Shown here piece after piece: positions 5,243-58,223 of a stretch of 64,000 nucleotides of DNA. A program made the position numbers and the translations under genes. Origin of the DNA: Candidatus Magasanikbacteria bacterium GW2011_GWA2_37_8 (GTDB lineage Bacteria; Patescibacteriota; Patescibacteriia; Magasanikbacterales; GWA2-37-8). The notes beneath the pieces were generated by a model. It made no database searches. It was not told the origin of the DNA and worked only from the letters and a program-made list of their open reading frames with translations. The stretch covers positions 1,498 through 65,497 of the forward strand of contig LBTN01000012.1 of the NCBI GenBank assembly GCA_000992085.1, in the 5' to 3' direction. Position 1 is the first letter of the stretch; every line of letters starts with the position of its first letter.

Positions 5243-6604
5243 ATGTTTCCGGAAAATATTTTTAAAGCCTATGATATTCGCGGGATCTATCCCGATGAAT
5301 TAAATGAAGATTTGGCCTATAAGATTGGGCGAGCCTATATAATATTAAGACAAACAGAACTTGGTAGAAAAAATATGAAAATTGCGATAGGCCACGATAT
5401 GCGCTTGTCTTCGCCGTCGTTATTTGCAGAATTAAAAAGAGGTCTTAAAGAGCAGGGCGCAGACGTTGTAGATATTGGTTTGGTTTCTACTCCAACTTAT
5501 TATTTTGCTGTTTCTTTTTATAATTATGATGGCGGCTTATTAATTTCCGCTTCTCATAATCCTAAGGAATATAATGGTATAAAGATTGTCCGAGAAAAAG
5601 CCAAGCCTTTGGGTAACGGCACTGGTATGGAGGAATTAAAAGAGATAGTTAAGAAGGGCGAATTTTTAGAATCTGATTATCTTGGTACAGAAGAAACTAA
5701 CGAGAATGTTTTAGAAGATGAAACCGTTTTATGCGAAAAGTATTCTGATTTAATAAAAATTAAACCCATGAAAATTGTGATAGATACTGCTAATTCTATG
5801 GGTATAGTTTATTTAGAGCGTTTGTTTAAAGATTTACCACAACTTACAATTATAAAAATGAACGATAAATTAGACGGGACTTTTCCTGCGCATCAGGCCG
5901 ATCCTCTACAAGAGAAAAATATAAAAGATTTGGAGGAAAGAGTAATAACAGAAAAAGCTGATTTAGGTATAGCCACCGATGGTGATGGGGACAGAATTTT
6001 TTTCGTTGATAACTTAGGCAAAAGAATTAGACCGGAGATAATGCGCGGTATTTTGGCGCAGACGTTTTTAAAAGATAATCCAGGTGCAACTATTTGTTAT
6101 GATATACGGCCGGGAAAGATTACCGAAGATATGATTTTAGAAGCTGGTGGCAAACCATCGGTTACTAAAGTGGGGCATTCGCTTATAAAAAGGCAAATGA
6201 TAGAAACCGGTGCGGTTTTTGGCGGTGAATCTTCTGGACATTTTTTTGTACAATTTCCCCACGGTACATATGAGGCGCCAATGATTGCGACCCTGAGATT
6301 TTTGCAAGTAATTTCAGAAAGTAATTTATCATCAGCGGATTATGTTAAACCGTTAGATAAATATTTTCATTCTGGCGAAATAAATTTTACAGTTAGCGAC
6401 AAAGAAAGAGTTTTAGAAGCATTAAAAATAAAATACGCTGATGCTAAAATCAATTCTTTGGATGGTCTAACTTTTACTTATCCGGATTTTTGGTTTAACG
6501 TTCGCGCGAGCAACACCGAACCGTTGTTGCGTTTAAATCTAGAATCCACATCTAAAGAGTTGATGGAAGAGAAATTAATTGAAATTAAAAATATAATTTT
6601 ATAA
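5243..6604 (+). CDS. Phosphomannomutase/phosphoglucomutase (alpha-D-phosphohexomutase family)
   Basis: 453 aa. Active-site serine loop SASHNPKEYNGIK, metal-binding loop ATDGDGDRIFFVD, sugar-binding GGESSGH. Confidence 0.85.
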   Translation: MFPENIFKAYDIRGIYPDELNEDLAYKIGRAYIILRQTELGRKNMKIAIGHDMRLSSPSLFAELKRGLKEQGADVVDIGLVSTPTYYFAVSFYNYDGGLLISASHNPKEYNGIKIVREKAKPLGNGTGMEELKEIVKKGEFLESDYLGTEETNENVLEDETVLCEKYSDLIKIKPMKIVIDTANSMGIVYLERLFKDLPQLTIIKMNDKLDGTFPAHQADPLQEKNIKDLEERVITEKADLGIATDGDGDRIFFVDNLGKRIRPEIMRGILAQTFLKDNPGATICYDIRPGKITEDMILEAGGKPSVTKVGHSLIKRQMIETGAVFGGESSGHFFVQFPHGTYEAPMIATLRFLQVISESNLSSADYVKPLDKYFHSGEINFTVSDKERVLEALKIKYADAKINSLDGLTFTYPDFWFNVRASNTEPLLRLNLESTSKELMEEKLIEIKNIIL

Positions 6605-6608
6605 TAAT

Positions 6609-7031
6609 ATGGTTGAAGGTAAAAAGGGGTTAGAAATGATGCGCCAAGGTGTTGGTCCGAGGCGTTTTACACAAAGCCAGCGCGCGGCGATGGTTGAGGC
6701 TAGAGATTCTTATTCAGTTTATAGAGCGGTAGACCAAATAAGAAGTGATTATGCCAATGCGGAGAGAGGAGATCTAGAGCGAGCTCAGGAATTGATGAAA
6801 GAAATGGGGGTAAGATTTGGTATTGTTATTGGCGAAGATGGTAAGGTAATTCATCCGCCTTTAGAAATAGAAACAAACGCCGGAATGTTTCGAGAAATTA
6901 GAATCCTTTCAATTGATTACAAGGGTCGTTGTGATTGGCAGTTTGTAAAAGCGAAAGAGCCAAAGATTGGTCATACGGTTATTCAAAATTTAATATCAGC
7001 AATGAATTTAAGAAGAAAAGAAGTTAAATAG
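6609..7031 (+). CDS. Hypothetical protein
   Basis: 140 aa ORF tightly following the mutase gene. No motif recognised. Confidence 0.4.
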   Translation: MVEGKKGLEMMRQGVGPRRFTQSQRAAMVEARDSYSVYRAVDQIRSDYANAERGDLERAQELMKEMGVRFGIVIGEDGKVIHPPLEIETNAGMFREIRILSIDYKGRCDWQFVKAKEPKIGHTVIQNLISAMNLRRKEVK

Positions 7032-9912: not shown

Positions 9913-10500
9913 ATGCATACTAATCGCGGGGCACTGGGATTAGAGGGGAGACCGGTTTTTGATCAAGAAAAATGTGTAGAAAATGATTTAACAGAACAGC
10001 AGTTAGAGATTTTGAAGCAAGTTAGGCCACGGTTAGATTTAGTGTTAAACACTAAAATGGCTATAAAAGAATTTCCTGAGGATAATTTAGAAGAAAACGG
10101 AGTTTTAAATGGTTTTTCTAATCCAGAAATGCAAGCCAAGGCGGCGGGAGATTTGCCAGGTTTTTTTGACGAACAATTAGAATCTAGATTTTTTGATTTA
10201 GATAGTTATGTTAAAAATTTGGGTAGTAGAGACAGTTTAGATAAAATAAGACAGTTTTTTAGCCAGTTTGATAGAGAGGGATCGGTAGTAAAGGAGGATG
10301 AGTTGGAAGAAAAATACAGAGATTTAGAAATTATTTATTTATCTTTACGTAACCGAATTTTATTATTAAAAGAAGTTATTTTACAAATCGAAAATAAAGT
10401 TAGTGATTATTTAAGACTCGAGATTACTATGCCTAAACATGGTAGTACGCAGCTTGTTTATAATGCTGGTAATGTTTGGAATAATTTAGTAAAACACTAA
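9913..10500 (+). CDS. Hypothetical protein
   Basis: 195 aa acidic ORF between rseP and pheS. No motif recognised. Confidence 0.4.
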   Translation: MHTNRGALGLEGRPVFDQEKCVENDLTEQQLEILKQVRPRLDLVLNTKMAIKEFPEDNLEENGVLNGFSNPEMQAKAAGDLPGFFDEQLESRFFDLDSYVKNLGSRDSLDKIRQFFSQFDREGSVVKEDELEEKYRDLEIIYLSLRNRILLLKEVILQIENKVSDYLRLEITMPKHGSTQLVYNAGNVWNNLVKH

Positions 10501-14115: not shown

Positions 14116-14502
14116 ATGTTTGAAACTTCAAAAGATATTTTGTATCTTGTAATAGCTTTCTGCGTTGTGTGGACTACAGTATTTTTGTGTTGGATGTTTT
14201 ATTATGTAATGCGACTATTGCGCAACACCAACGAAATTGTAGAAGAGTTCCGAAGCCGATTAGAAACTTTAATGGAAATAGTTCACAACATTCATGGCAA
14301 GGTAGAAAAAATTTCTAGTTTAATTACTTTGGCCACCGAAGGCGCTGGTGGATTAGTTAAAAAAATGATTGTTAAAAAAACATCCGATTGGTTGGGTAAA
14401 ACCGAGAACAATTTTAATGGCGCAGCCAAAGATGCAGTAAGTAAAGCAGTATCGGCCACTACCAAAAAAATGAAAAAAGTAACCAAGAAAATAAAGAAAT
14501 AA
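14116..14502 (+). CDS. Small membrane protein with Lys-rich tail, unknown function
   Basis: 128 aa. One TM (ILYLVIAFCVVWTTVFLCWMFYYV). RBS-like agagggg upstream. Confidence 0.45.
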   Translation: MFETSKDILYLVIAFCVVWTTVFLCWMFYYVMRLLRNTNEIVEEFRSRLETLMEIVHNIHGKVEKISSLITLATEGAGGLVKKMIVKKTSDWLGKTENNFNGAAKDAVSKAVSATTKKMKKVTKKIKK

Positions 14503-14531
14503 AATTGGTTTAAAATATCGAATTTATTATT

Positions 14532-14565
14532 AAAATCTGCCTTTAAAAAGGGCAGATTTTTGTTA
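14532..14565 (+). terminator. Intrinsic terminator
   Basis: aaaatctgcc-tttaaaaag-ggcagatttt (10-bp stem) running into a T-run. Confidence 0.6.
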
Positions 14566-14593
14566 ACCAGCTCAGTTGTTGTTCAGTTGTTGT

Positions 14594-14622
14594 TTGACAG
14601 AAATGTAAATTTGTGCTATAAT
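14594..14622 (+). promoter_or_regulatory. Consensus sigma70-type promoter for the DGR target gene
   Basis: TTGACA (14594-14599), 17-nt spacer, TGc-TATAAT (TATAAT at 14617-14622, extended -10 TG at 14614-14615). Two perfect tandem 11-mers tcagttgttgt (14572-14582, 14583-14593) directly abut the -35. Confidence 0.6.
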
Positions 14623-14655
14623 ACCACGTTCTTTTAAAATTTGGCTAAATTACGA

Positions 14656-14743
14656 GGCAAGCGCTATGAATGTGCTAGTTTTAGTGTGTTTATAGCGCTT
14701 GCCTTACGTAAGGCAGACTGTAACCCGAGCAGTATAAATCGGG
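14656..14743 (+). promoter_or_regulatory. Structured 5' leader of the DGR target mRNA (three hairpins, two mutually exclusive)
   Basis: 12-bp stem ggcaagcgctat/atagcgcttgcc (14656-14667/14692-14703). Perfect 14-nt palindrome gccttacgtaaggc (14701-14714) shares gcc with the first stem. Third stem cccga/tcggg (14724-14728/14739-14743) lies just before the RBS GGAGG (14752-14756). Confidence 0.4.
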
Positions 14744-14762
14744 AGGATTGTGGAGGTGGACG

Positions 14763-15644
14763 ATGACGACTCGAGGGTCGATCACATCCGGTCAGAGTAG
14801 GCGGATTGCGCAGTTCGGTTCCGACGCGGTTGAGGTCGTGCTCGCGGAGCTCGATCTCAGCCAGGATGGTGCGCAGTGCGTAATAGAGCAGAACGGGGAG
14901 GAGTTCTGCGAGGCCATGCGCAACGCCGCACGCGTCGCGCTACGGGTCATGTCCATGCCCAACCAGTTCGCGGACGAGGAGGTCGACTCCAACTTCACCT
15001 ACCCGCCCGAGTACAAGGGCGTGAAGGGGGTCGCGGAGCAGACCAACATCCTGCGGGGGTTATTTCCGGGTCTCGGGTTCGCCGACGAGAAGGTCGTGGC
15101 GCTCCCGCTGCCCAAGCACGCCGAGGGTTGGTTCGCCATCCCGCGGTGGCAGAACATCGCCCCGACCTACGGCGAGGCGGTGGAGAAGGTGTCGGCTCTG
15201 ATCGTGTCCAGGCGGACGTTCTACAACTACCGCCAGGGCAAGCTTGCGGCCAGATACTTGCGCCAGCACGCGCGGACCGAGAAGTTCCTCCGCCAGGTCG
15301 GTGACCAGCAGAAGGATTTTGATATCCTCGTGGTTGCGGCCCAGTTCGGCCTGCGTTTCCGTGGCAAGTCGGTTCGGCGTTCCAGGGTGCTGTTCGAGAA
15401 GAACGAGTACGGTTTGGGTGCATTCGCCATCGGCATCATGCTGTTGACGCACCCCGAGCGACTCGTTCGTTGGGAGCAGCTCCACGTGGACTGCGCGGGC
15501 GACGAGTATTCGGCCGACGGCGATGGCGTCTTCTCCGAGGCGCCCTATTTCTACTTCGACGACGACGAGCTGAGGTTCGGCACGCGCGACTGTTCCAGCT
15601 ACAGCGGCCCTTTCGGGTCGGCGTCCGGCTTCCTCGCGCAGTAG
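14763..15644 (+). CDS. DGR target (variable) protein; unknown N-terminal domain, C-terminal 43 codons are the VR
   Basis: ORF track gives 14748-15644 from a TTG. ATG at 14763 sits 6 nt after GGAGG and is the likelier start. The frame is supported by the TR comparison: all 14 VR/TR differences fall on codon positions 1 or 2 of this frame. GC-rich (58-68% on lines I counted), with GC3-rich codons unlike every neighbour. Confidence 0.8.
   Translation: MTTRGSITSGQSRRIAQFGSDAVEVVLAELDLSQDGAQCVIEQNGEEFCEAMRNAARVALRVMSMPNQFADEEVDSNFTYPPEYKGVKGVAEQTNILRGLFPGLGFADEKVVALPLPKHAEGWFAIPRWQNIAPTYGEAVEKVSALIVSRRTFYNYRQGKLAARYLRQHARTEKFLRQVGDQQKDFDILVVAAQFGLRFRGKSVRRSRVLFEKNEYGLGAFAIGIMLLTHPERLVRWEQLHVDCAGDEYSADGDGVFSEAPYFYFDDDELRFGTRDCSSYSGPFGSASGFLAQ
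15513..15642 (+). repeat. DGR variable region (VR)
   Basis: 130 nt, 116/130 identical to 16231-16360. All 14 mismatches occur where the other copy has A. It ends 2 nt before the end of the target stop codon (TAG 15642-15644). Confidence 0.9.
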
Positions 15645-15849
15645 CCCCTTGGCCACTTGAACACTTGGATCTTTTGACATCTTGTCGCTGGATATTTGAG
15701 TTCATTTCTGCCGTCAGGCAGTCGCCGGCTCTGGGGTATCTGCACGCGTCACGTCTTGCCAGCCAATTCAACAAGGAGGGGTTTCCGGTTCAACCGGAGA
15801 TTCGGCGCCATGCCGAATCAAGGGGTGCGTTTGTTCCTACAAGTGCACC

Positions 15850-15903
15850 TACCCCGTTCAGTTTTCATCTAAAGTAGGTGGAAGTTGAACGGGGTATTTT
15901 TTT
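15850..15903 (+). terminator. Intrinsic terminator of the target transcript
   Basis: 11-bp stem taccccgttca / tgaacggggta (15850-15860 / 15886-15896) followed by T7 (15897-15903). Confidence 0.65.
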
Positions 15904-15911
15904 AACAAAAT

Positions 15912-15941
15912 TATTGCAAACTATTGCAAACTATTGCAATT
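15912..15941 (+). repeat. Three tandem 10-bp repeats tattgcaa(ac/tt), each carrying a TTGCAA -35-like hexamer
   Basis: tattgcaaac (15912-15921), tattgcaaac (15922-15931), tattgcaatt (15932-15941), read directly. Confidence 0.8.
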
Positions 15942-15961
15942 TATTTTATTCCAGATATAAT
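15934..15961 (+). promoter_or_regulatory. Putative promoter of the TR-containing RNA
   Basis: TTGCAA (15934-15939), 16-nt spacer, TATAAT (15956-15961). It lies just after the target terminator and about 270 nt upstream of the TR. Confidence 0.45.
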
Positions 15962-16230
15962 ATTATTCAGTAAGGCTAATGTACGGCAGTCTACTGATCG
16001 CCGTCGCCAAACTTCTCAATCAACCGAGAAAAACAACCAGAGTCTTGGCGATTATTATTTCCAAGAGCGTGTTGTGTTGAGGGGATACTGCTTGTCTTTG
16101 TCTGGTACAGGTCTCCGACGTTTTGTCGTGGGTGCTGTCAAATAAAATTCAGAGCTAAGAGCATATATTTTTGCAGCCAGCGGAAGGTAAAGCTCGAGGT
16201 TTGGTGATAATAGATGGGCAAAGATAATTA

Positions 16231-16360
16231 GCCGACGGCGATGGCGTCTTCTCCAAGGCGCCCTATTTCAACTTCAACGACGACAAGCTGAAGTTCGACA
16301 CGAACGACTGTTCCAACTACAACGACAATTTCGGGTCGGCGTCCGGCTTCCTCGCGAAGT
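16231..16360 (+). repeat. DGR template repeat (TR)
   Basis: Non-coding copy of the VR. It has 30 adenines, including 5 AAC, 1 AAT and 4 AAG codons in the target frame. The 3' 28 nt (tttcgggtcggcgtccggcttcctcgcg) contain no A, are G/C-rich and are identical to the VR, so they are IMH-like. Confidence 0.9.
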
Positions 16361-16375
16361 CTCTCCCCAAATAAC

Positions 16376-16404
16376 AAAGGGTGTTCCGTAATGGAACACC
16401 CTTT
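16376..16404. terminator. 12-bp hairpin 3' of TR; possible bidirectional terminator (TR RNA on +, avd on -) or TR-RNA structural element
   Basis: aaagggtgttcc-gtaat-ggaacacccttt. U-rich sequence follows on both strands. The avd stop codon is at 16422-16424. Confidence 0.5.
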
Positions 16405-16421
16405 CTGTTATCGTTGTTTTT

Positions 16422-16772
16422 TTACGTTGTTTTGCAGGATTTTATCCAACCACCTAGCATGCGGCCGATCTCGTCCACAATATTCTCTAAGGTCACATAC
16501 TTTTTGTTGTCTATAGTCTTAACATCTTTTAGTAATCGAATAAAGACACGCAACATATTTAGTTTTAAACTAACATGTTCCAATGTTGCTACTTTATTTA
16601 ACTTAGATTCAGTGCCAGCTTGGATAACGCCTTCGGTTACGGCCATGACAAAAATTTCACAACGTTCAAAAACAGTATAGCGGTCTTGTTTTGGTACACT
16701 TTTGCGGTATTCGTGTAGAAGCTTATACAATTCGTATGTCTTTTTAAAGATGGGTATATCTAAATCATTCAT
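16422..16772 (-). CDS. avd: DGR accessory variability determinant (Avd-like four-helix-bundle protein)
   Basis: 116 aa, basic, helical. It has SVPKQDRYTVFERCE and the C-terminal EIGRMLGGWIKS motif, which parallels EVGRILGSWI of Bordetella phage bAvd as I recall it. It lies next to the TR and RT. Confidence 0.85.
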   Translation of the reverse strand: MNDLDIPIFKKTYELYKLLHEYRKSVPKQDRYTVFERCEIFVMAVTEGVIQAGTESKLNKVATLEHVSLKLNMLRVFIRLLKDVKTIDNKKYVTLENIVDEIGRMLGGWIKSCKTT

Positions 16773-16777
16773 ATGAT

Positions 16778-17029
16778 ATGAAAGTTATTAATAATATATA
16801 TGGCAGGATCGTTTCTCTGGAAAATTTGGTAATGGCTTGGGATGAATTTAAGGTTGGCAAAACTCAAAAGGAGGATGTGACGGAATTTGAATTTTTCTTG
16901 GAGCAAAATTTATTTGCTTTGCATGAAGAATTAAAAACCAAAAAATATCGCCATGGGCTATATACCTCATTTTACATTCGCGATCCAAAGGTTCGCCATA
17001 TTCATAAAGCCACAGTGAAGGAATTTTAG
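16778..17029 (+). CDS. DGR reverse transcriptase, N-terminal fragment (ends at an in-frame TAG)
   Basis: 83 aa. SLENLVMAWDEF...LHEELKTKKYRHGLYTSFYIRDPKVRHIHKATVKEF aligns with the Brt N-terminus (WENLLDAY...YEPKPRLISALEFKDR, from memory). The frame stops where motif 1 (K-D-R) is expected. Confidence 0.8.
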   Translation: MKVINNIYGRIVSLENLVMAWDEFKVGKTQKEDVTEFEFFLEQNLFALHEELKTKKYRHGLYTSFYIRDPKVRHIHKATVKEF

Positions 17030-17040
17030 CCTTAGAGACA

Positions 17041-17721
17041 ATGATCCGCCAAGTTAGCCATAACTATACCAAGCAGTGTTATGTCTTAAAATGTGATGTG
17101 CGCAAATTTTTTGATTCCATTGACCACGGCGTATTATTAGAAATGCTCTCCAAAAAAATTATTGATCGGAATACCAATTGGTTGTTGGAGCGAATAATCC
17201 AAAGTTTTGCCGTTGGCTACACAACTTTGTTTGAACGGCAGGGTGTGCCTATTGGTAATCTTACCTCCCAATTATTCGCTAATGTTTATATGAATGAATT
17301 TGACCAATATGTGAAGCATAAATTAAAAGTTAAACATTACGCGCGCTACACCGACGACTTTATGATTGTGGCAAACGACAGACAATATTTAGTTGATTTA
17401 CTTTTTCCTATCCGCGAATTTTTACAGAATCGTCTGAAGTTGATTTTGCATCCCAAAAAAGTATCTTTGCGTAAATATCGCCAAGGTGCAGATTTTTTAG
17501 GGTCTGTGATTTTACCACAATATCGGCTTTTGCGAAACAAAACAAAACGTCGTATTTTTCGTAAATTACAGTGTCGAGTAAAAGAATTTAAAGAGAATAA
17601 AATTGATGAAATACGGTTAGAACAATCCTTACAATCTTATTTGGGTGTATTATCGCATACTAATGCCTATCATTTGAGTGACGAGATAAAGAACCAGTTT
17701 TGGTTTTGGTTGGGAGAGTAA
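17041..17721 (+). CDS. DGR reverse transcriptase, C-terminal fragment (palm/thumb motifs 3-7), in a different frame from the N-terminal fragment
   Basis: 226 aa. YVLKCDVRKFFDSIDH (motif 3/A), GVPIGNLTSQLFANVYMNEFD (DGR-specific xGxxxSQ motif 4), YARYTDDFMIV (YxDD, motif 5/C), LHPKKVSL...ADFLGSVI (motifs 6-7). Confidence 0.9.
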   Translation: MIRQVSHNYTKQCYVLKCDVRKFFDSIDHGVLLEMLSKKIIDRNTNWLLERIIQSFAVGYTTLFERQGVPIGNLTSQLFANVYMNEFDQYVKHKLKVKHYARYTDDFMIVANDRQYLVDLLFPIREFLQNRLKLILHPKKVSLRKYRQGADFLGSVILPQYRLLRNKTKRRIFRKLQCRVKEFKENKIDEIRLEQSLQSYLGVLSHTNAYHLSDEIKNQFWFWLGE

Positions 17722-17804
17722 TTAGATAGGGTTTTTTACCTGTTTTTTCTATTATTTTTGTTATTGCCTTTATTTACTTTTTGCGTTAAAATACCCCCAC
17801 TAAA

Positions 17805-19064
17805 ATGATTATGATTATAGTTGATTTACATATCCATTCGCGGTTTTCTCGGGCTTGTTCGCCTGAATTAAATTTGCCTAATATTGCGGAGTGGTGCGGT
17901 ATTAAAGGTATAAATTTGGTGGCAACGGGCGATTTTACCCATCCAGCTTGGTTTGAAGAAATTAAAGATAATTTAATTGAGGAAGGTAATGGACTACTGC
18001 ACCTAAAGAACGGTAATTCAGAAATTAAGTTTATTTTAGGTACCGAAGTGTCTTGTATTTATTCACAAGGCGGAAAAACCAGACGGGTGCATTTGTGTTT
18101 GTTTTTTCCTAATTTGGCAGATGTAGAGAAATTTAATAATACCCTTACTGATCGTGGCTGTAATATTCATTCTGATGGCCGGCCAATTTTGGGGTTATCC
18201 TCAATTGAGGTTTTAAAAATAATGAAAAGTATTAACGAAAGATCGGTAATGATTCCGGCGCATGCTTGGACGCCTTGGTTTGCGGTGTTTGGTTCAAAAT
18301 CTGGTTTTGATTCGCTAGAAGAATGTTTTGGTGATTTAAGTTCAGAAATTTTTGCAATTGAAACTGGGTTATCAAGCGACCCGGCTATGAACTGGATGTT
18401 GTCGGCGTTAGACAAAGTAACATTAGTATCTAGTTCCGATGCACACAGTTTGCCTAATTTAGGGCGTGAAGCCAATGTATTTAATTTGGATATTGCTAAA
18501 GCCAGTTATGATGATTTGTTTTTAGCAATCAAAAACAAGGATCCAAAAATATTTTTAAACACAGTCGAATTTTATCCAGAAGAAGGGATGTATCATTTTG
18601 ATGGCCACCGTGATTGTGATGTTTGTTTTGCTCCAGCCGATACCAAGAAAAACAAAAATATTTGTCCAAAGTGTAAAAAACCAGTGGTAGTGGGCGTGCT
18701 AAACAGGGTAGAGGTGTTAGCCGATCGGGCCGAAGGTTTTGTGCCGTCAAACAGTATTCCATTTGTTAGTTTGGTGGGGTTAGATAAAATTATTTGTGAA
18801 GCGTTGGGCATTAAATCCAGATCTAGTAACAAAGTACAAAAAAAATATAACGAATTAATTAAAAAAGGAGATAACGAATTTAATATTTTATTAAATTTGT
18901 CTTATCCCGAATTAGCTAAAATTACTTTACCAGAAATTGTAGAAGGTATTCGCCGTGTGCGTGAGAAAAAACTATCAATTAGCCCTGGATTTGATGGGCA
19001 ATATGGTAAAGTAACTATTTTTAGTAGTGAAGAAAGAAAAGTTTTTCAAGAAAAATTGTTTTAA
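17805..19064 (+). CDS. PHP-domain protein of the endonuclease Q-like (TIGR00375-type) family
   Basis: 419 aa. N-terminal VDLHIHSRFSRACS...ATGDFTHPAW PHP metal motifs. Cys cluster HRDCDVCF...CPKCKK (zinc finger). The family call is from memory of EndoQ sequences. Confidence 0.55.
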   Translation: MIMIIVDLHIHSRFSRACSPELNLPNIAEWCGIKGINLVATGDFTHPAWFEEIKDNLIEEGNGLLHLKNGNSEIKFILGTEVSCIYSQGGKTRRVHLCLFFPNLADVEKFNNTLTDRGCNIHSDGRPILGLSSIEVLKIMKSINERSVMIPAHAWTPWFAVFGSKSGFDSLEECFGDLSSEIFAIETGLSSDPAMNWMLSALDKVTLVSSSDAHSLPNLGREANVFNLDIAKASYDDLFLAIKNKDPKIFLNTVEFYPEEGMYHFDGHRDCDVCFAPADTKKNKNICPKCKKPVVVGVLNRVEVLADRAEGFVPSNSIPFVSLVGLDKIICEALGIKSRSSNKVQKKYNELIKKGDNEFNILLNLSYPELAKITLPEIVEGIRRVREKKLSISPGFDGQYGKVTIFSSEERKVFQEKLF

Positions 19065-28373: not shown

Positions 28374-28634
28374 ATGTATAAACGCCACGACCAATCGTTC
28401 AAGGACGAGATCCTTGCAATAATAAAAAACGGCACAAAAGTGCCTGACGTTTGTGCTCAATATAATATGAGCACAAAAACAGTGTATGCCTGGCTTCGGG
28501 CTCAGGCGGATAATACTGGTACGAGTTCATTAGAGCTCGCTCGTCTTAGACGGGAAAACCAGGAATTAAAAGAAATTATCGGTATGTTCGCTCTTGAAAA
28601 AAAGCGAACGGAAAAAAATACGAAGAGCGCGTGA
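28374..28634 (+). CDS. IS3-family transposase OrfA (HTH)
   Basis: 86 aa. SFKDEILAIIKNGTKVPDVCAQYNMSTKTVYAWL followed by a leucine-zipper-like LARLRRENQELKE. Ends in the A-rich slippery region (A7G at 28597-28604). Confidence 0.75.
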   Translation: MYKRHDQSFKDEILAIIKNGTKVPDVCAQYNMSTKTVYAWLRAQADNTGTSSLELARLRRENQELKEIIGMFALEKKRTEKNTKSA

Positions 28635-29353
28635 ATATATGGCCAAAGTTAAAACCAAAACAGCATTGGCCAAAGAACTTGGTATTGCTCGCTCTTCTCT
28701 TTACTATCAACCCAAAAAGCCTGTTTCAGACGAAGAATTAAAAAAACAAATTATTGCTGTCATGACGGAACACCCAGCTTACGGCCACCGGCGGGTAGCT
28801 CTGGCACTAGGAAAAAACAAAAAACCAATTATTCGGGTAATGAAGGTTAATCACTTAAAACCAAAAATTCGTCGTGGCTGGAAGCCAACTAAGTCAGAAG
28901 ATTTAAACCGGCCAGAGACACGGGTAGAAAATGTTTTAAAAGTAGTTTATCCGGTTCGTCCGAATGTAATTTGGGCCGGAGATTTCACTTACCTCTGGTT
29001 TGTTGATCGATTCTGGTATGTAGCAACAGTAATTGATATTTACACGAGAGAAATTGTCGGTTGGCATATTGCCAACCATCACACGACCACGCTCACACCA
29101 AGTCACACCATCGCATAGTCGTAAATCCAGTCCTTGGCAGAACGGTTTCCAAGAATCTTTTTATTCACAGTTTAAATTGGAATTAGGTAATCTTAATCGT
29201 TTTAATCACATTGGCGAACTAATTGAGGCTGTGCATCAACAAATTGCTTACTACAATTTTCGTCGTATCCACTCGGTTCTAAAAATGCCGCCAGTACTTT
29301 TCAAAGAAAAATATTTACAAAAAAATACCACTTACATGGTATTAACAACTTAA
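28594..29353 (+). pseudogene. IS3-family transposase OrfB (DDE integrase core), disrupted
   Basis: Two overlapping fragments in different frames (28594-29118, 29033-29353). N-fragment has HPAYGHRRV...WAGDFTYL...YVATVIDIYTREIVGW (first D region). C-fragment has SPWQNGFQESFYSQFKLE...YYNFRRIHS (E region). The middle HSD(R/Q)G-type segment is missing. Confidence 0.7.
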
Positions 29354-29464
29354 TTTATTTACTCATCCGAATGAGAAAGAGTGTCTAAAATTTGGGGTAC
29401 TTGCCACGAGGGTTCGCGCAATTTCCTTGGTCGTTATTGTCCGAAAAAAGCTCTTGTGTTAACT

Positions 29465-35271: not shown

Positions 35272-36270
35272 ATGACAAATATCGCAATTAATGGTTTCGG
35301 CCGTATTGGCCGGCAGGCTTTTAAAGCTGCTTTTAAGAACAAAAGAATTAAAATTGTTGGCATTAACGATTTAACCGACACCAAAACTTTGGCACATCTT
35401 TTGCAATATGATACCGCCTATGGTAAATATGAATTGCCAGTAACATATGATGAAAAAAATATTATTGTTAAAGGCAAAAAGTTTCCAGTATTTGCCGAAA
35501 AAGATCCAAGTTTCTTGCCTTGGAAAAAATTAAAAGTAGATGTGGTTTTGGAATGTACTGGCCGATTTACCAATAAAGCCGGCGCAGAATTGCATGTAAA
35601 AGCTGGGGCGAATAAAGTAATTATTTCTGCTCCATCAAAAGGTCCTGAAATTCCAACTTATGTGCGATCGGTTAATTGTGGTAAAGTAGGAAAAGAAAAA
35701 TCATTAGTTATTAATAATGCTTCTTGTACCACCAATTGTATTGCCCCAGTAATGGCAATTTTGGATGAAAAATTTGGTATTGAAAAAGCTATGATGAGTA
35801 CAGTACATGGATATACTGCCGATCAAAATTTACAAGATGGCCCACACAAAGATTTGCGTCGGGCACGGGCAGCTGCAGAAAATATTGTGCCCACCACTAC
35901 CGGAGCTGCTAAAGCAGTGGGGGAGGTAAAAACAAATTTACAAGGTATCTTTGATGGTGTAGCTTTTCGCGTGCCAGTGCCTACTTGTTCATTATCAGAT
36001 ATTACCGCAGTTTTAAAAAAGAATGTTACTAAAGAAGAAATTAACAAAGCTTTAATCGATGCCGCCAAAACTGCTCGTTTCGCCGGAGTACTAGATGTAA
36101 CTTTTGAACCACTGGTTTCTTCAGATTTTGTAGGTAATAGTTATTCTTCGATTGTTGATGCCAGCCTAACTAACGTAGTGGGTGGAAATTTGATAAAGGT
36201 AGTTGCTTGGTATGATAACGAATATGGCTATGCCCATCGTTTAATAGAAATGGCAGAATTATTTGCTTAA
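35272..36270 (+). CDS. gap: Glyceraldehyde-3-phosphate dehydrogenase
   Basis: 332 aa. INGFGRIGR, active site ASCTTNC, WYDNEYGY. Confidence 0.95.
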   Translation: MTNIAINGFGRIGRQAFKAAFKNKRIKIVGINDLTDTKTLAHLLQYDTAYGKYELPVTYDEKNIIVKGKKFPVFAEKDPSFLPWKKLKVDVVLECTGRFTNKAGAELHVKAGANKVIISAPSKGPEIPTYVRSVNCGKVGKEKSLVINNASCTTNCIAPVMAILDEKFGIEKAMMSTVHGYTADQNLQDGPHKDLRRARAAAENIVPTTTGAAKAVGEVKTNLQGIFDGVAFRVPVPTCSLSDITAVLKKNVTKEEINKALIDAAKTARFAGVLDVTFEPLVSSDFVGNSYSSIVDASLTNVVGGNLIKVVAWYDNEYGYAHRLIEMAELFA

Positions 36271-41137: not shown

Positions 41138-42079
41138 ATGTCAAAAAAATTATTTGATTTTATTTCTTCTTTTGGGATGATGCTGGTCGGCGTTTTTTTA
41201 TTATTCGCGAACACAGTTTCTTTTTCTCCGACTGGTCGACAGTGGTTAAAATTACCAGTGTCTAATCCCCGACAATTGATAGGTGGTGATGCGATCGCCG
41301 AAAATTTGCCGGTTTTGCGTCCTACTGTTCCTTTGCAGAAAAATAAAAATAATTTTGTCGGAGTGTTAACTGCTCAATCGGTTATAGTGGTAGATAACAA
41401 GACAGAAGCAGTTTTGTTCGAGAAAAATAGCGACGCAATTCGACCTCTAGCCAGTGTAACCAAATTGATGAGTGCTTTGGTACTATTAGATTTACCAATA
41501 CAATGGTCTACTACCACAGAAATTTTTGAGACTGATGATGTTGGTAGTAGCCATATTATTAATGCAGGAGAAAAATTTACTGCTGATGATTTATGGCATG
41601 TAGGTTTAATTGGCTCATCTAATAGTGCTATTAATGCCTTGGTAAGAATTAGCGGTTTAACTCCTACTCAATTTGCAGCACGAATGAATCGAAAAGCACG
41701 TGATTTACAATTAACTTCTGCTCATTTTGTAGAGGCTACTGGTTTAGATGCAGATAATATTGCCAGTGTACGTGATGTTGCCAAACTTTTAAAAATTGCT
41801 TTACAAAAAGACAAAATATTACAAACAGTGCAAATTGGTGAATATTATATACATCCTTTAGGTAAAGATAAGCCACGACGAGTATGGAGTACCGATTGGC
41901 TTTTAACTAAGTGGGTTCCGAGTAATTTTACTGTATCTCAGATTGCTGGTAAAACGGGTTTTATTAATGAGTCTGGTTATAATTTTGCGGTACATTTAAG
42001 TGATAATAATGGTCATGCGGTGCGTGTTATAGTTTTTGGTGCGTCTACCAACGAAAATCGTTTTATCTATGAATATTAG
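41138..42079 (+). CDS. D-alanyl-D-alanine carboxypeptidase (serine peptidase S11, PBP5-like)
   Basis: 313 aa. SxxK (ASVTKLM), SxN (SSNS), KTG (GKTGFI). N-terminal TM. Confidence 0.75.
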   Translation: MSKKLFDFISSFGMMLVGVFLLFANTVSFSPTGRQWLKLPVSNPRQLIGGDAIAENLPVLRPTVPLQKNKNNFVGVLTAQSVIVVDNKTEAVLFEKNSDAIRPLASVTKLMSALVLLDLPIQWSTTTEIFETDDVGSSHIINAGEKFTADDLWHVGLIGSSNSAINALVRISGLTPTQFAARMNRKARDLQLTSAHFVEATGLDADNIASVRDVAKLLKIALQKDKILQTVQIGEYYIHPLGKDKPRRVWSTDWLLTKWVPSNFTVSQIAGKTGFINESGYNFAVHLSDNNGHAVRVIVFGASTNENRFIYEY

Positions 42080-57333: not shown

Positions 57334-58223
57334 ATGGGTTTAATTAGTTCTGTATCAGATTTTTTTAGAGTACATTGGTTGTTACTGTCTTTTTGTGCGC
57401 CAATGCTTTGGGCGATTGTTAATATTATTGATGTATACTTTGTTAAAGAAGTATATGATGACGAAATGGATGGAACTATAATGTCGGGTTTGTTTCAAAT
57501 TATTCCATGGTTCGCTTTAATATTTTTTTTACCGTGGGGTAATTTTAAGGTGTTGTGGACAAATTTCTATGGTTACAGCATAATCCCTAACTTTTTAATG
57601 GTCTACGGGCAATTTCTTTTTTTATTGGTGCTGAGCAATTACCGATGATTAAATATATTGGTATGGGCGTGGTTTTGTTGGGTGCTATATTATTATCTTT
57701 AAGTAATAAAATTAGAAATAAATTTTCTGTGCGCTATATGTCGATTATGTTAGCGGCGGTATTTTTACTTTCTTTAAGTATGATATTTGAGGGCGAAGCT
57801 TATACTAGAATTTTAGATTATAATTTTGGTGATCAGGGATTTTTGTTTATTTTTGCATTATTTTCTTTAGGAGCATTTTTGGCTGGTGTTTTTTTTACCA
57901 TTTTAGTTAAGCGTAATCCAATAATTTTAATAAAAAAATATTGGAAGGTATTCTTTGTAGCCGAAGGCATTTCTTTCGTTGGCACACTAGCATCACAAAG
58001 GTCAATTGACGTTGCCCCATCAGTATCATATGTGGCTACAGTAGAAACTTTTGTGCCCGTTTTTATTATATTTTTTAGTTTAATTATTTTGGTGTATCTT
58101 TCCAAAATTGCAAAAGTTGGGAATGGTGTTATTGAAGCTATTTATCGGGAGCAGCTTGATGGTGTTTGGATAAAAATTATCGCCACTGTAGTGATGGGGG
58201 TTGGCGTTTATCTTATCAGTTAA
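57334..58223 (+). pseudogene. Polytopic membrane transporter-like gene (EamA/DMT-like) split by a frameshift at a T7 run
   Basis: ORFs 57334-57648 and 57645-58223. The downstream frame is open back to 57591. Shifting frame inside ttttttt (57617-57623) gives the continuous ...MVYGQFLFFIGAEQLPMIKYIGMGVVLLGAILLS. Confidence 0.5.

Follow-up and report, generated by a model that had tools for sequence, protein, structure and literature searches.

A reverse transcriptase gene interrupted in one genome record: a probable assembly artefact within a diversity-generating retroelement of a Magasanikbacteria bacterium

Background

In diversity-generating retroelements (DGRs), a reverse transcriptase (RT) and its partner, the accessory variability determinant (Avd), reverse-transcribe the RNA of a template repeat (TR) with adenine-specific misincorporation, and the resulting cDNA replaces the variable repeat (VR) of a target gene. 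In the DGR of the Bordetella phage BPP-1 these roles are taken by bRT, bAvd, the TR and the VR of mtd. The RTs of DGRs contain motifs 1 to 7, together with motif 2a (PMC5758913).

Here we analyse a DGR in a stretch of 64,000 nucleotides (hereafter the window) taken from a contig of Candidatus Magasanikbacteria bacterium GW2011_GWA2_37_8, a genome under whose name our search found no literature. The locus is a complete, standard DGR of a Patescibacteria (CPR) genome, in which the integrity of the RT fails only in the GenBank deposit. An earlier note on the same DNA had described the RT as interrupted and had left three readings side by side: a very recent inactivating deletion, an error of assembly, or a population in which functional and deleted alleles coexist.

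Results

The cassette is laid out as a promoter, a target gene with a 3' VR, a terminator, the TR, bAvd on the minus strand, and the RT. The target gene, which encodes the variable protein, lies at 14763..15644 on the plus strand and specifies 293 aa from its ATG (the mechanical ORF start is a TTG at 14748). Its VR (15513..15642, plus strand) is a 130-nt direct repeat, with 89% identity, of the TR (16231..16360, plus strand, likewise 130 nt), and bAvd, of 116 aa, occupies 16422..16772 on the minus strand. Four further elements are consensus matches only: a sigma-70-like promoter before the target gene (14594-14622), with a perfect TTGACA-17-TATAAT and a TG extension; a strong hairpin of the terminator type, with a T-run after it, behind the target gene (15850..15896, plus strand); a promoter-like site upstream of the TR (15934-15961); and a 12-bp hairpin downstream of the TR (16376-16404). 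Taken together, these consensus matches point to a transcript of its own for the TR, about 440 nt long. An Rfam scan of positions 14400-17900 returned no RNA family.

The features that define a DGR are present, the integrity of the RT apart. TR and VR differ at 14 positions, the number given in the earlier note, and all 14 are adenines in the TR; the VR runs up to the target gene's stop codon, and the AAC, AAG and AAT codons of the TR are in frame. The RT is of the DGR clade, with IGNLTSQ as motif 4 ([I/L/V]GxxxSQ) and YTDD as the YxDD motif. The Avd scores 85.8 bits (E = 2.2e-24) with the NCBIfam model NF033474 (DivGenRetAVD), whose cut-off is 80, and matches the Pfam bAvd family with E = 8.8e-18, and the target protein has no match in Pfam or NCBIfam. 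In the population from which the genome was assembled, the DGR presumably functions by the standard mechanism.

The RT of the window is divided between two ORFs on the plus strand. The N-terminal fragment (ORF A, 16778..17029, 83 aa) is identical to the GenBank protein KKQ40809.1, and the C-terminal fragment (ORF B, 17041..17721, 226 aa as called), which carries motifs 2a-7 plus the thumb, is identical to KKQ40810.1. ORF A ends with RHIHKATVKEF before a TAG at 17027-17029, its final two codons and the stop being out-of-frame read-through beyond the junction. ORF B starts at the ATG at 17041, in a frame different from that of ORF A, with MIRQVSHNYTKQCYVLKCDVRKFFDSIDH, and the residues upstream of it in the same frame are GILALET. 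The earlier note had read correctly both this ending and the resumption of the catalytic part after LALET in another frame, but had taken the second frame to be open back to at least 16981. The homologous reading frame of ORF B begins at 17018 and is open back to 17008 only, with a TAA at 17005-17007; the frames of ORF A and ORF B thus share 19 nt (17008-17026).

Comparison of the DNA with the intact allele places a clean loss of 106 nt, that is 35 codons plus 1 nt, between 17017 and 17018, where the earlier estimate had been about 33 codons (35 1/3 as measured). The lost segment is present in all sibling assemblies, and there is no microhomology at the junction. In the numbering of the intact allele, P0001, the missing residues are 81-115, RDRVLHHAIFRILNPIFESTFISSSFSCRVGKGTH, which are the finger motifs 1 and 2 of the standard RT nomenclature. 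These residues align with residues 82-116 of the Bordetella bRT, KDRLVQHALCNIVAPIFEAGLLPYTYACRPDKGTH (PDB 8ub7, E = 6e-48), and hence the alignment to Brt in the earlier note, with motif 1 due exactly at the break, was right. The absence of motifs 1-2 is likewise seen in the profile comparison: the match of ORF B to RVT_1 (Pfam, E = 1.6e-18) starts at profile position 55 of 205, so that the first quarter of the domain is absent, and ORF A by itself matches no RT model in Pfam or NCBIfam. When aligned with P0001 and six other homologues of 348-349 aa, the window RT shows a hole of 35 columns, which together with the 106-nt gap bears out the frame break and the loss of codons over motifs 1-2. 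The later motifs, KCDVRKFFDSIDH, IGNLTSQ and YTDD, are preserved, as had also been claimed. An RT with uninterrupted motifs 1-7 is therefore absent from the window as deposited and present in the sibling assemblies, in the 349 aa of P0001.

The overlap of the two frames raises a reading in which the split is functional, with either a programmed -1 frameshift or an RT made in two pieces giving an active enzyme, since a -1 shift within 17008-17026 would fuse the frames. The fused product would nevertheless still be without motifs 1-2, and no slippery heptamer of the form X XXY YYZ is seen when the overlap is read by eye. A query of ORF A joined to ORF B retrieved 7617 homologues, and each of the 120 listed among them is a single ORF, with lengths of 336-360 aa and in nearly every case 349 aa; no split RT was seen in related genomes. 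The best homologue, P0001 (349 aa), shows no substitution relative to the window in the alignment and differs only by 35 additional residues between KATV and KGILALET; the identical genome elsewhere has a single RT ORF. This intact allele effectively refutes a programmed frameshift or a split RT, and we consider that the chance of either is close to nil.

P0001 is encoded at the same locus on at least six contigs of up to 114 kb in ENA, JGI and Logan assemblies, and these contigs share the gene order pheS-pheT-target-bAvd-RT-MJ0043_C-dnaE-tsaD. Against the sibling locus L001, the window aligns over 6240 nt on one side of the 106-nt gap, where pheT holds the only 2 SNPs, and over 6704 nt with 100% identity on the other; against a second locus, L002, both flanks of the gap are 100% identical. 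BioProject PRJNA268031 is presumably the project behind the GW2011 genomes. Several of the sibling contigs are re-assemblies of runs of this BioProject, which come from groundwater filtrates (PMC6251912). All of the other assemblies, from at least five samples or runs, encode an RT of 349 aa, either P0001 (six contigs) or its variant P0122 (two short contigs).

The broken form is confined to one record. KKQ40809.1 and KKQ40810.1, to which a cluster look-up led, lie on a single contig of 67,352 nt, US58_C0012 (locus tags US58_C0012G....), of Candidatus Magasanikbacteria bacterium GW2011_GWA2_37_8, and because ORF A and ORF B are these GenBank proteins, the break already stands in the public record and did not arise at a later stage. 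Exact look-up of the broken ORFs in a position index of 153 billion genes (ENA, JGI, NCBI and Logan assemblies) found neither of them, and the same exact look-up with the pheT of the window gave nothing. A scan of genome-contig and metagenome-contig collections with the exact pattern of the left flank of the RT gap had no match, so that no further alleles came from these collections.

If the loss were a real and very recent deletion of 106 bp, the RT of this strain would be a pseudogene and its VR frozen. Such a deletion would explain why the break, with its frameshift and the loss of motifs 1-2, stands in the deposited genome, and the two SNPs in pheT, which are private to the window in comparison with most sibling assemblies, indicate a slightly different consensus or strain and so leave formal room for strain-specific deletions. 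However, the VR is the same where the RT is intact. The consensus VR is identical in five assemblies, and the identity of consensus VR and TR in L001 and L024, both with an intact RT, and in three others means that nothing ties the break to a frozen VR; the proposal in the earlier note that a recent inactivating deletion had frozen the VR is therefore unsupported. The lack of microhomology also speaks against a deletion, and replication slippage between direct repeats was rejected because microhomology at the RT junction is zero.

More weight on this question falls to a comparison in which 21 loci of sibling assemblies, covering 63.7 of the 64 kb, were set against the full window. Outside five holes, identity to the sibling assemblies is 99.97-100%. 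The five holes lie at about 10101 (111 nt), 17017 (106 nt), 29095 (113 nt), about 42065 (119 nt) and 57607 (118 nt), and every other assembly compared (ENA, JGI and Logan) is free of them. At the first (10101..10102) the 111 nt are missing in frame, leaving an ORF of 195 aa instead of 232 aa; the second (17017..17018) is that of the RT; the third (29095..29096) lies within an IS transposase (rve). The fourth (42064..42066), which amounts to 92 nt when measured against the strain variant L005, removed the end of a Peptidase_S11 gene, whose product is described as a PBP-like peptidase, and the region upstream of pgk. The fifth (57607..57608) divides a 335-aa ORF into 104 + 192 aa. The truncated products are found solely as GenBank proteins of the same contig, with full-length forms on four to six contigs from other sources; those of the four holes outside the RT stand as truncated proteins in both GenBank and UniProt. 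Microhomology at the five junctions ranges from 0 to 3 nt. Except for a single chance match of 17 nt, the rest of the window contains no copy of any of the five missing segments, and the idea that the 106 nt had moved to another place in the window was accordingly rejected. There are no Ns at the junctions, nor anywhere in the window.

The positions of the holes also coincide with places where assembly is difficult in other data sets. Three of the junctions coincide with an end of an independent MEGAHIT contig: the last positions of L018 and L011 are exactly 10101 and 57607, respectively, and L007 starts 1 nt before the piece that is missing at 29095. Four junctions have sites of strain variation at a distance of 13-92 nt on their upstream side, namely position 10057 (44 nt upstream of the junction at about 10101), six SNPs at 16948-16990 (27-69 nt upstream of 17017), position 29082 (13 nt upstream of 29095) and position 57515 (92 nt upstream of 57607), and at the remaining junction, the fourth (about 42065), a variant with a 27-nt indel adjoins it. 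The binomial probability that 4 of the roughly 14 variant clusters in the 64 kb fall within the total of 500 nt upstream of the junctions is about 3.5e-6.

This neighbourhood of strain heterogeneity could be taken to favour the coexistence of functional and deleted RT alleles in the population, with the assembler having picked the deleted one, since the variation adjoins the junction: the strain encoding P0122 carries the six SNPs at 16948-16990, two of which are non-synonymous (L61P and T63A). Against this, every other assembly has the full 349 aa, the RT of the variant strain included, and the five uniform holes count against coexistence as well. A deletion, whether alone or coexisting with an intact allele, would require five independent events of nearly equal size, all of them private to one assembly, in unrelated genes and at polymorphic or contig-break positions; we know of no deletion process that yields such a uniform size class. 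Taken together, a strain whose RT was inactivated by a real, recent deletion seems very unlikely to us, and we judge a mixture of functional and deleted alleles to be equally improbable. There is also only a slim chance that a minority strain truly lacks the 106 bp, so that an RT-null lineage with a frozen VR lives alongside DGR-active siblings in the aquifer. If it existed, such a lineage would offer a natural experiment on what an episymbiotic CPR bacterium gains and loses by hypermutation.

Over 3 kb, L024 differs from the window only in the six SNPs at 16948-16990, a 43-nt stretch in the 5' region of the RT gene, and L025 differs only in the first four of these; this looks like a short patch of recombination or conversion. 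A similar patch, of seven SNPs at 35841-35919, separates the window from L008. Elsewhere in the window, between the Peptidase_U32 and HU genes, there is an IS element with HTH_Tnp_1 and rve transposase ORFs (about 28375-29400, corresponding to 4355-5447 of L003); the contigs L004, L005 and L007 start or end in this region, and the IS copy is thus probably repeated or polymorphic in the population.

The target protein belongs to a family with at least 2506 homologues of about 290 aa, the best of which is a 293-aa protein with 100% identity. None of the listed members has a Pfam domain, and the few members whose source is named are mostly from Patescibacteria. The GC content of the target gene is 63.7%, compared with 36.6% for the window as a whole; RT (35%) and Avd (36%) are host-like, and the TR has 56%. 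The same excess over the surroundings is repeated in three unrelated loci of the family, in each of which the target gene lies in the region 6001-6888: the target has 64% in L020 (locus 49%), 63% in L022 (locus 48%) and 57% in L023 (locus 38%). The high GC content seems to belong to the target family itself and does not look like the trace of a recent transfer of the entire cassette. In the public gene calls for a sibling locus, an ORF of 142 aa in the wrong frame (window 14876-15304, corresponding to L001 4099-4527) was called in place of the real, VR-bearing ORF of 293 aa, which was missed. Because of such wrong-frame calls, members of this family that serve as DGR targets may be under-annotated.

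Discussion

The frame break in the RT is, in all likelihood, a local artefact of assembly or scaffolding in contig US58_C0012 of GW2011_GWA2_37_8, and the DGR is otherwise ordinary and intact. Of the readings put forward in the earlier note, an error of assembly or collapse is the one favoured by the intact alleles elsewhere, by the restriction of the broken ORFs to one GenBank contig and by the five similar holes. The lesion is uniform and recurrent, it is absent from independent assemblies, and its junctions fall at polymorphisms and contig ends; five holes that are private to one assembly, near-equal in size and located at variable sites or contig ends point to collapsed gaps of a scaffold and not to biology. 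We suggest that the original assembler broke the contig at strain-variable sites, and that a later join, through scaffolding, gap handling or automated repair of errors, may have abutted the ends while leaving out both the intervening sequence and the Ns. The stretch lost each time would be about the length of one read or one k-mer. Because the junctions carry no Ns, the step that removed sequence is an inferred one. The laboratory behind these genomes describes an automated script, ra2.py, by which local errors of scaffolding are either corrected or turned into Ns (PMC5220378), and automated edits at such sites were thus part of the making of these genomes. In the real population, the RT would be a continuous protein of 349 aa with motifs 1-7.

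The main value of this finding is cautionary, as the interrupted RT is very probably not a real feature of the organism. In the deposited genome, and in the entries that UniProt and NCBI took from it (KKQ40809.1 and KKQ40810.1), the DGR has a split RT, and surveys that demand an intact RT would overlook the element or put it in the wrong class. Since the holes are not flagged by Ns, any inference of gene loss or of pseudogenes from this assembly, and probably from its sister assemblies too, needs to be checked against independent assemblies.

The five holes resemble the local errors known from metagenome assembly, which likewise occur as multiple uniform holes, in one assembly only, co-located with polymorphisms and with the contig breaks of other assemblies. 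They differ in that such errors may be filled with Ns, for example by ra2.py, whereas the junctions of the window carry none.

Compared with the DGR of BPP-1, the locus is alike in its essential parts: bRT (8ub7) is the closest solved structure to the RT of the intact allele, with the E-value given above, and both systems combine an RT with IGNLTSQ and YTDD, an Avd homologue, adenine-specific differences between TR and VR, and a target gene whose 3' end carries the VR. Unlike in BPP-1, Avd and RT are encoded divergently, on opposite strands; neither CLec nor any other Pfam domain can be recognised in the target, which belongs to a large family of about 290 aa; and the DGR is chromosomal, between pheT and dnaE, instead of being borne by a phage.

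The closest likeness is to the DGRs of groundwater CPR/Patescibacteria, which have the same class of 349-aa RT, the named matches being from Magasanikbacteria, Paceibacterota, Parcubacteria and Spechtbacteria. In L020, L022 and L023 the same target family adjoins an RT of the DGR type. L023 has the layout of the window, with target, bAvd on the minus strand and RT, whereas the RTs of L020 and L022 lie on the strand opposite to the target, and no bAvd was called there. Neighbours of a defence type were observed in L020 (7625-12888), which has a restriction-modification pair with an RE_AlwI domain and a SduA (Shedu) domain, and in L023 (1-5737 and 9177-10559), which has HNH, DUF2326 and SLFN_AlbA_2 proteins; the neighbours of the DGR in the window are housekeeping genes instead. 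Between the DGRs of groundwater CPR bacteria and that of the window we find no substantive difference except for the 106-nt gap, which we regard as an artefact with high probability.
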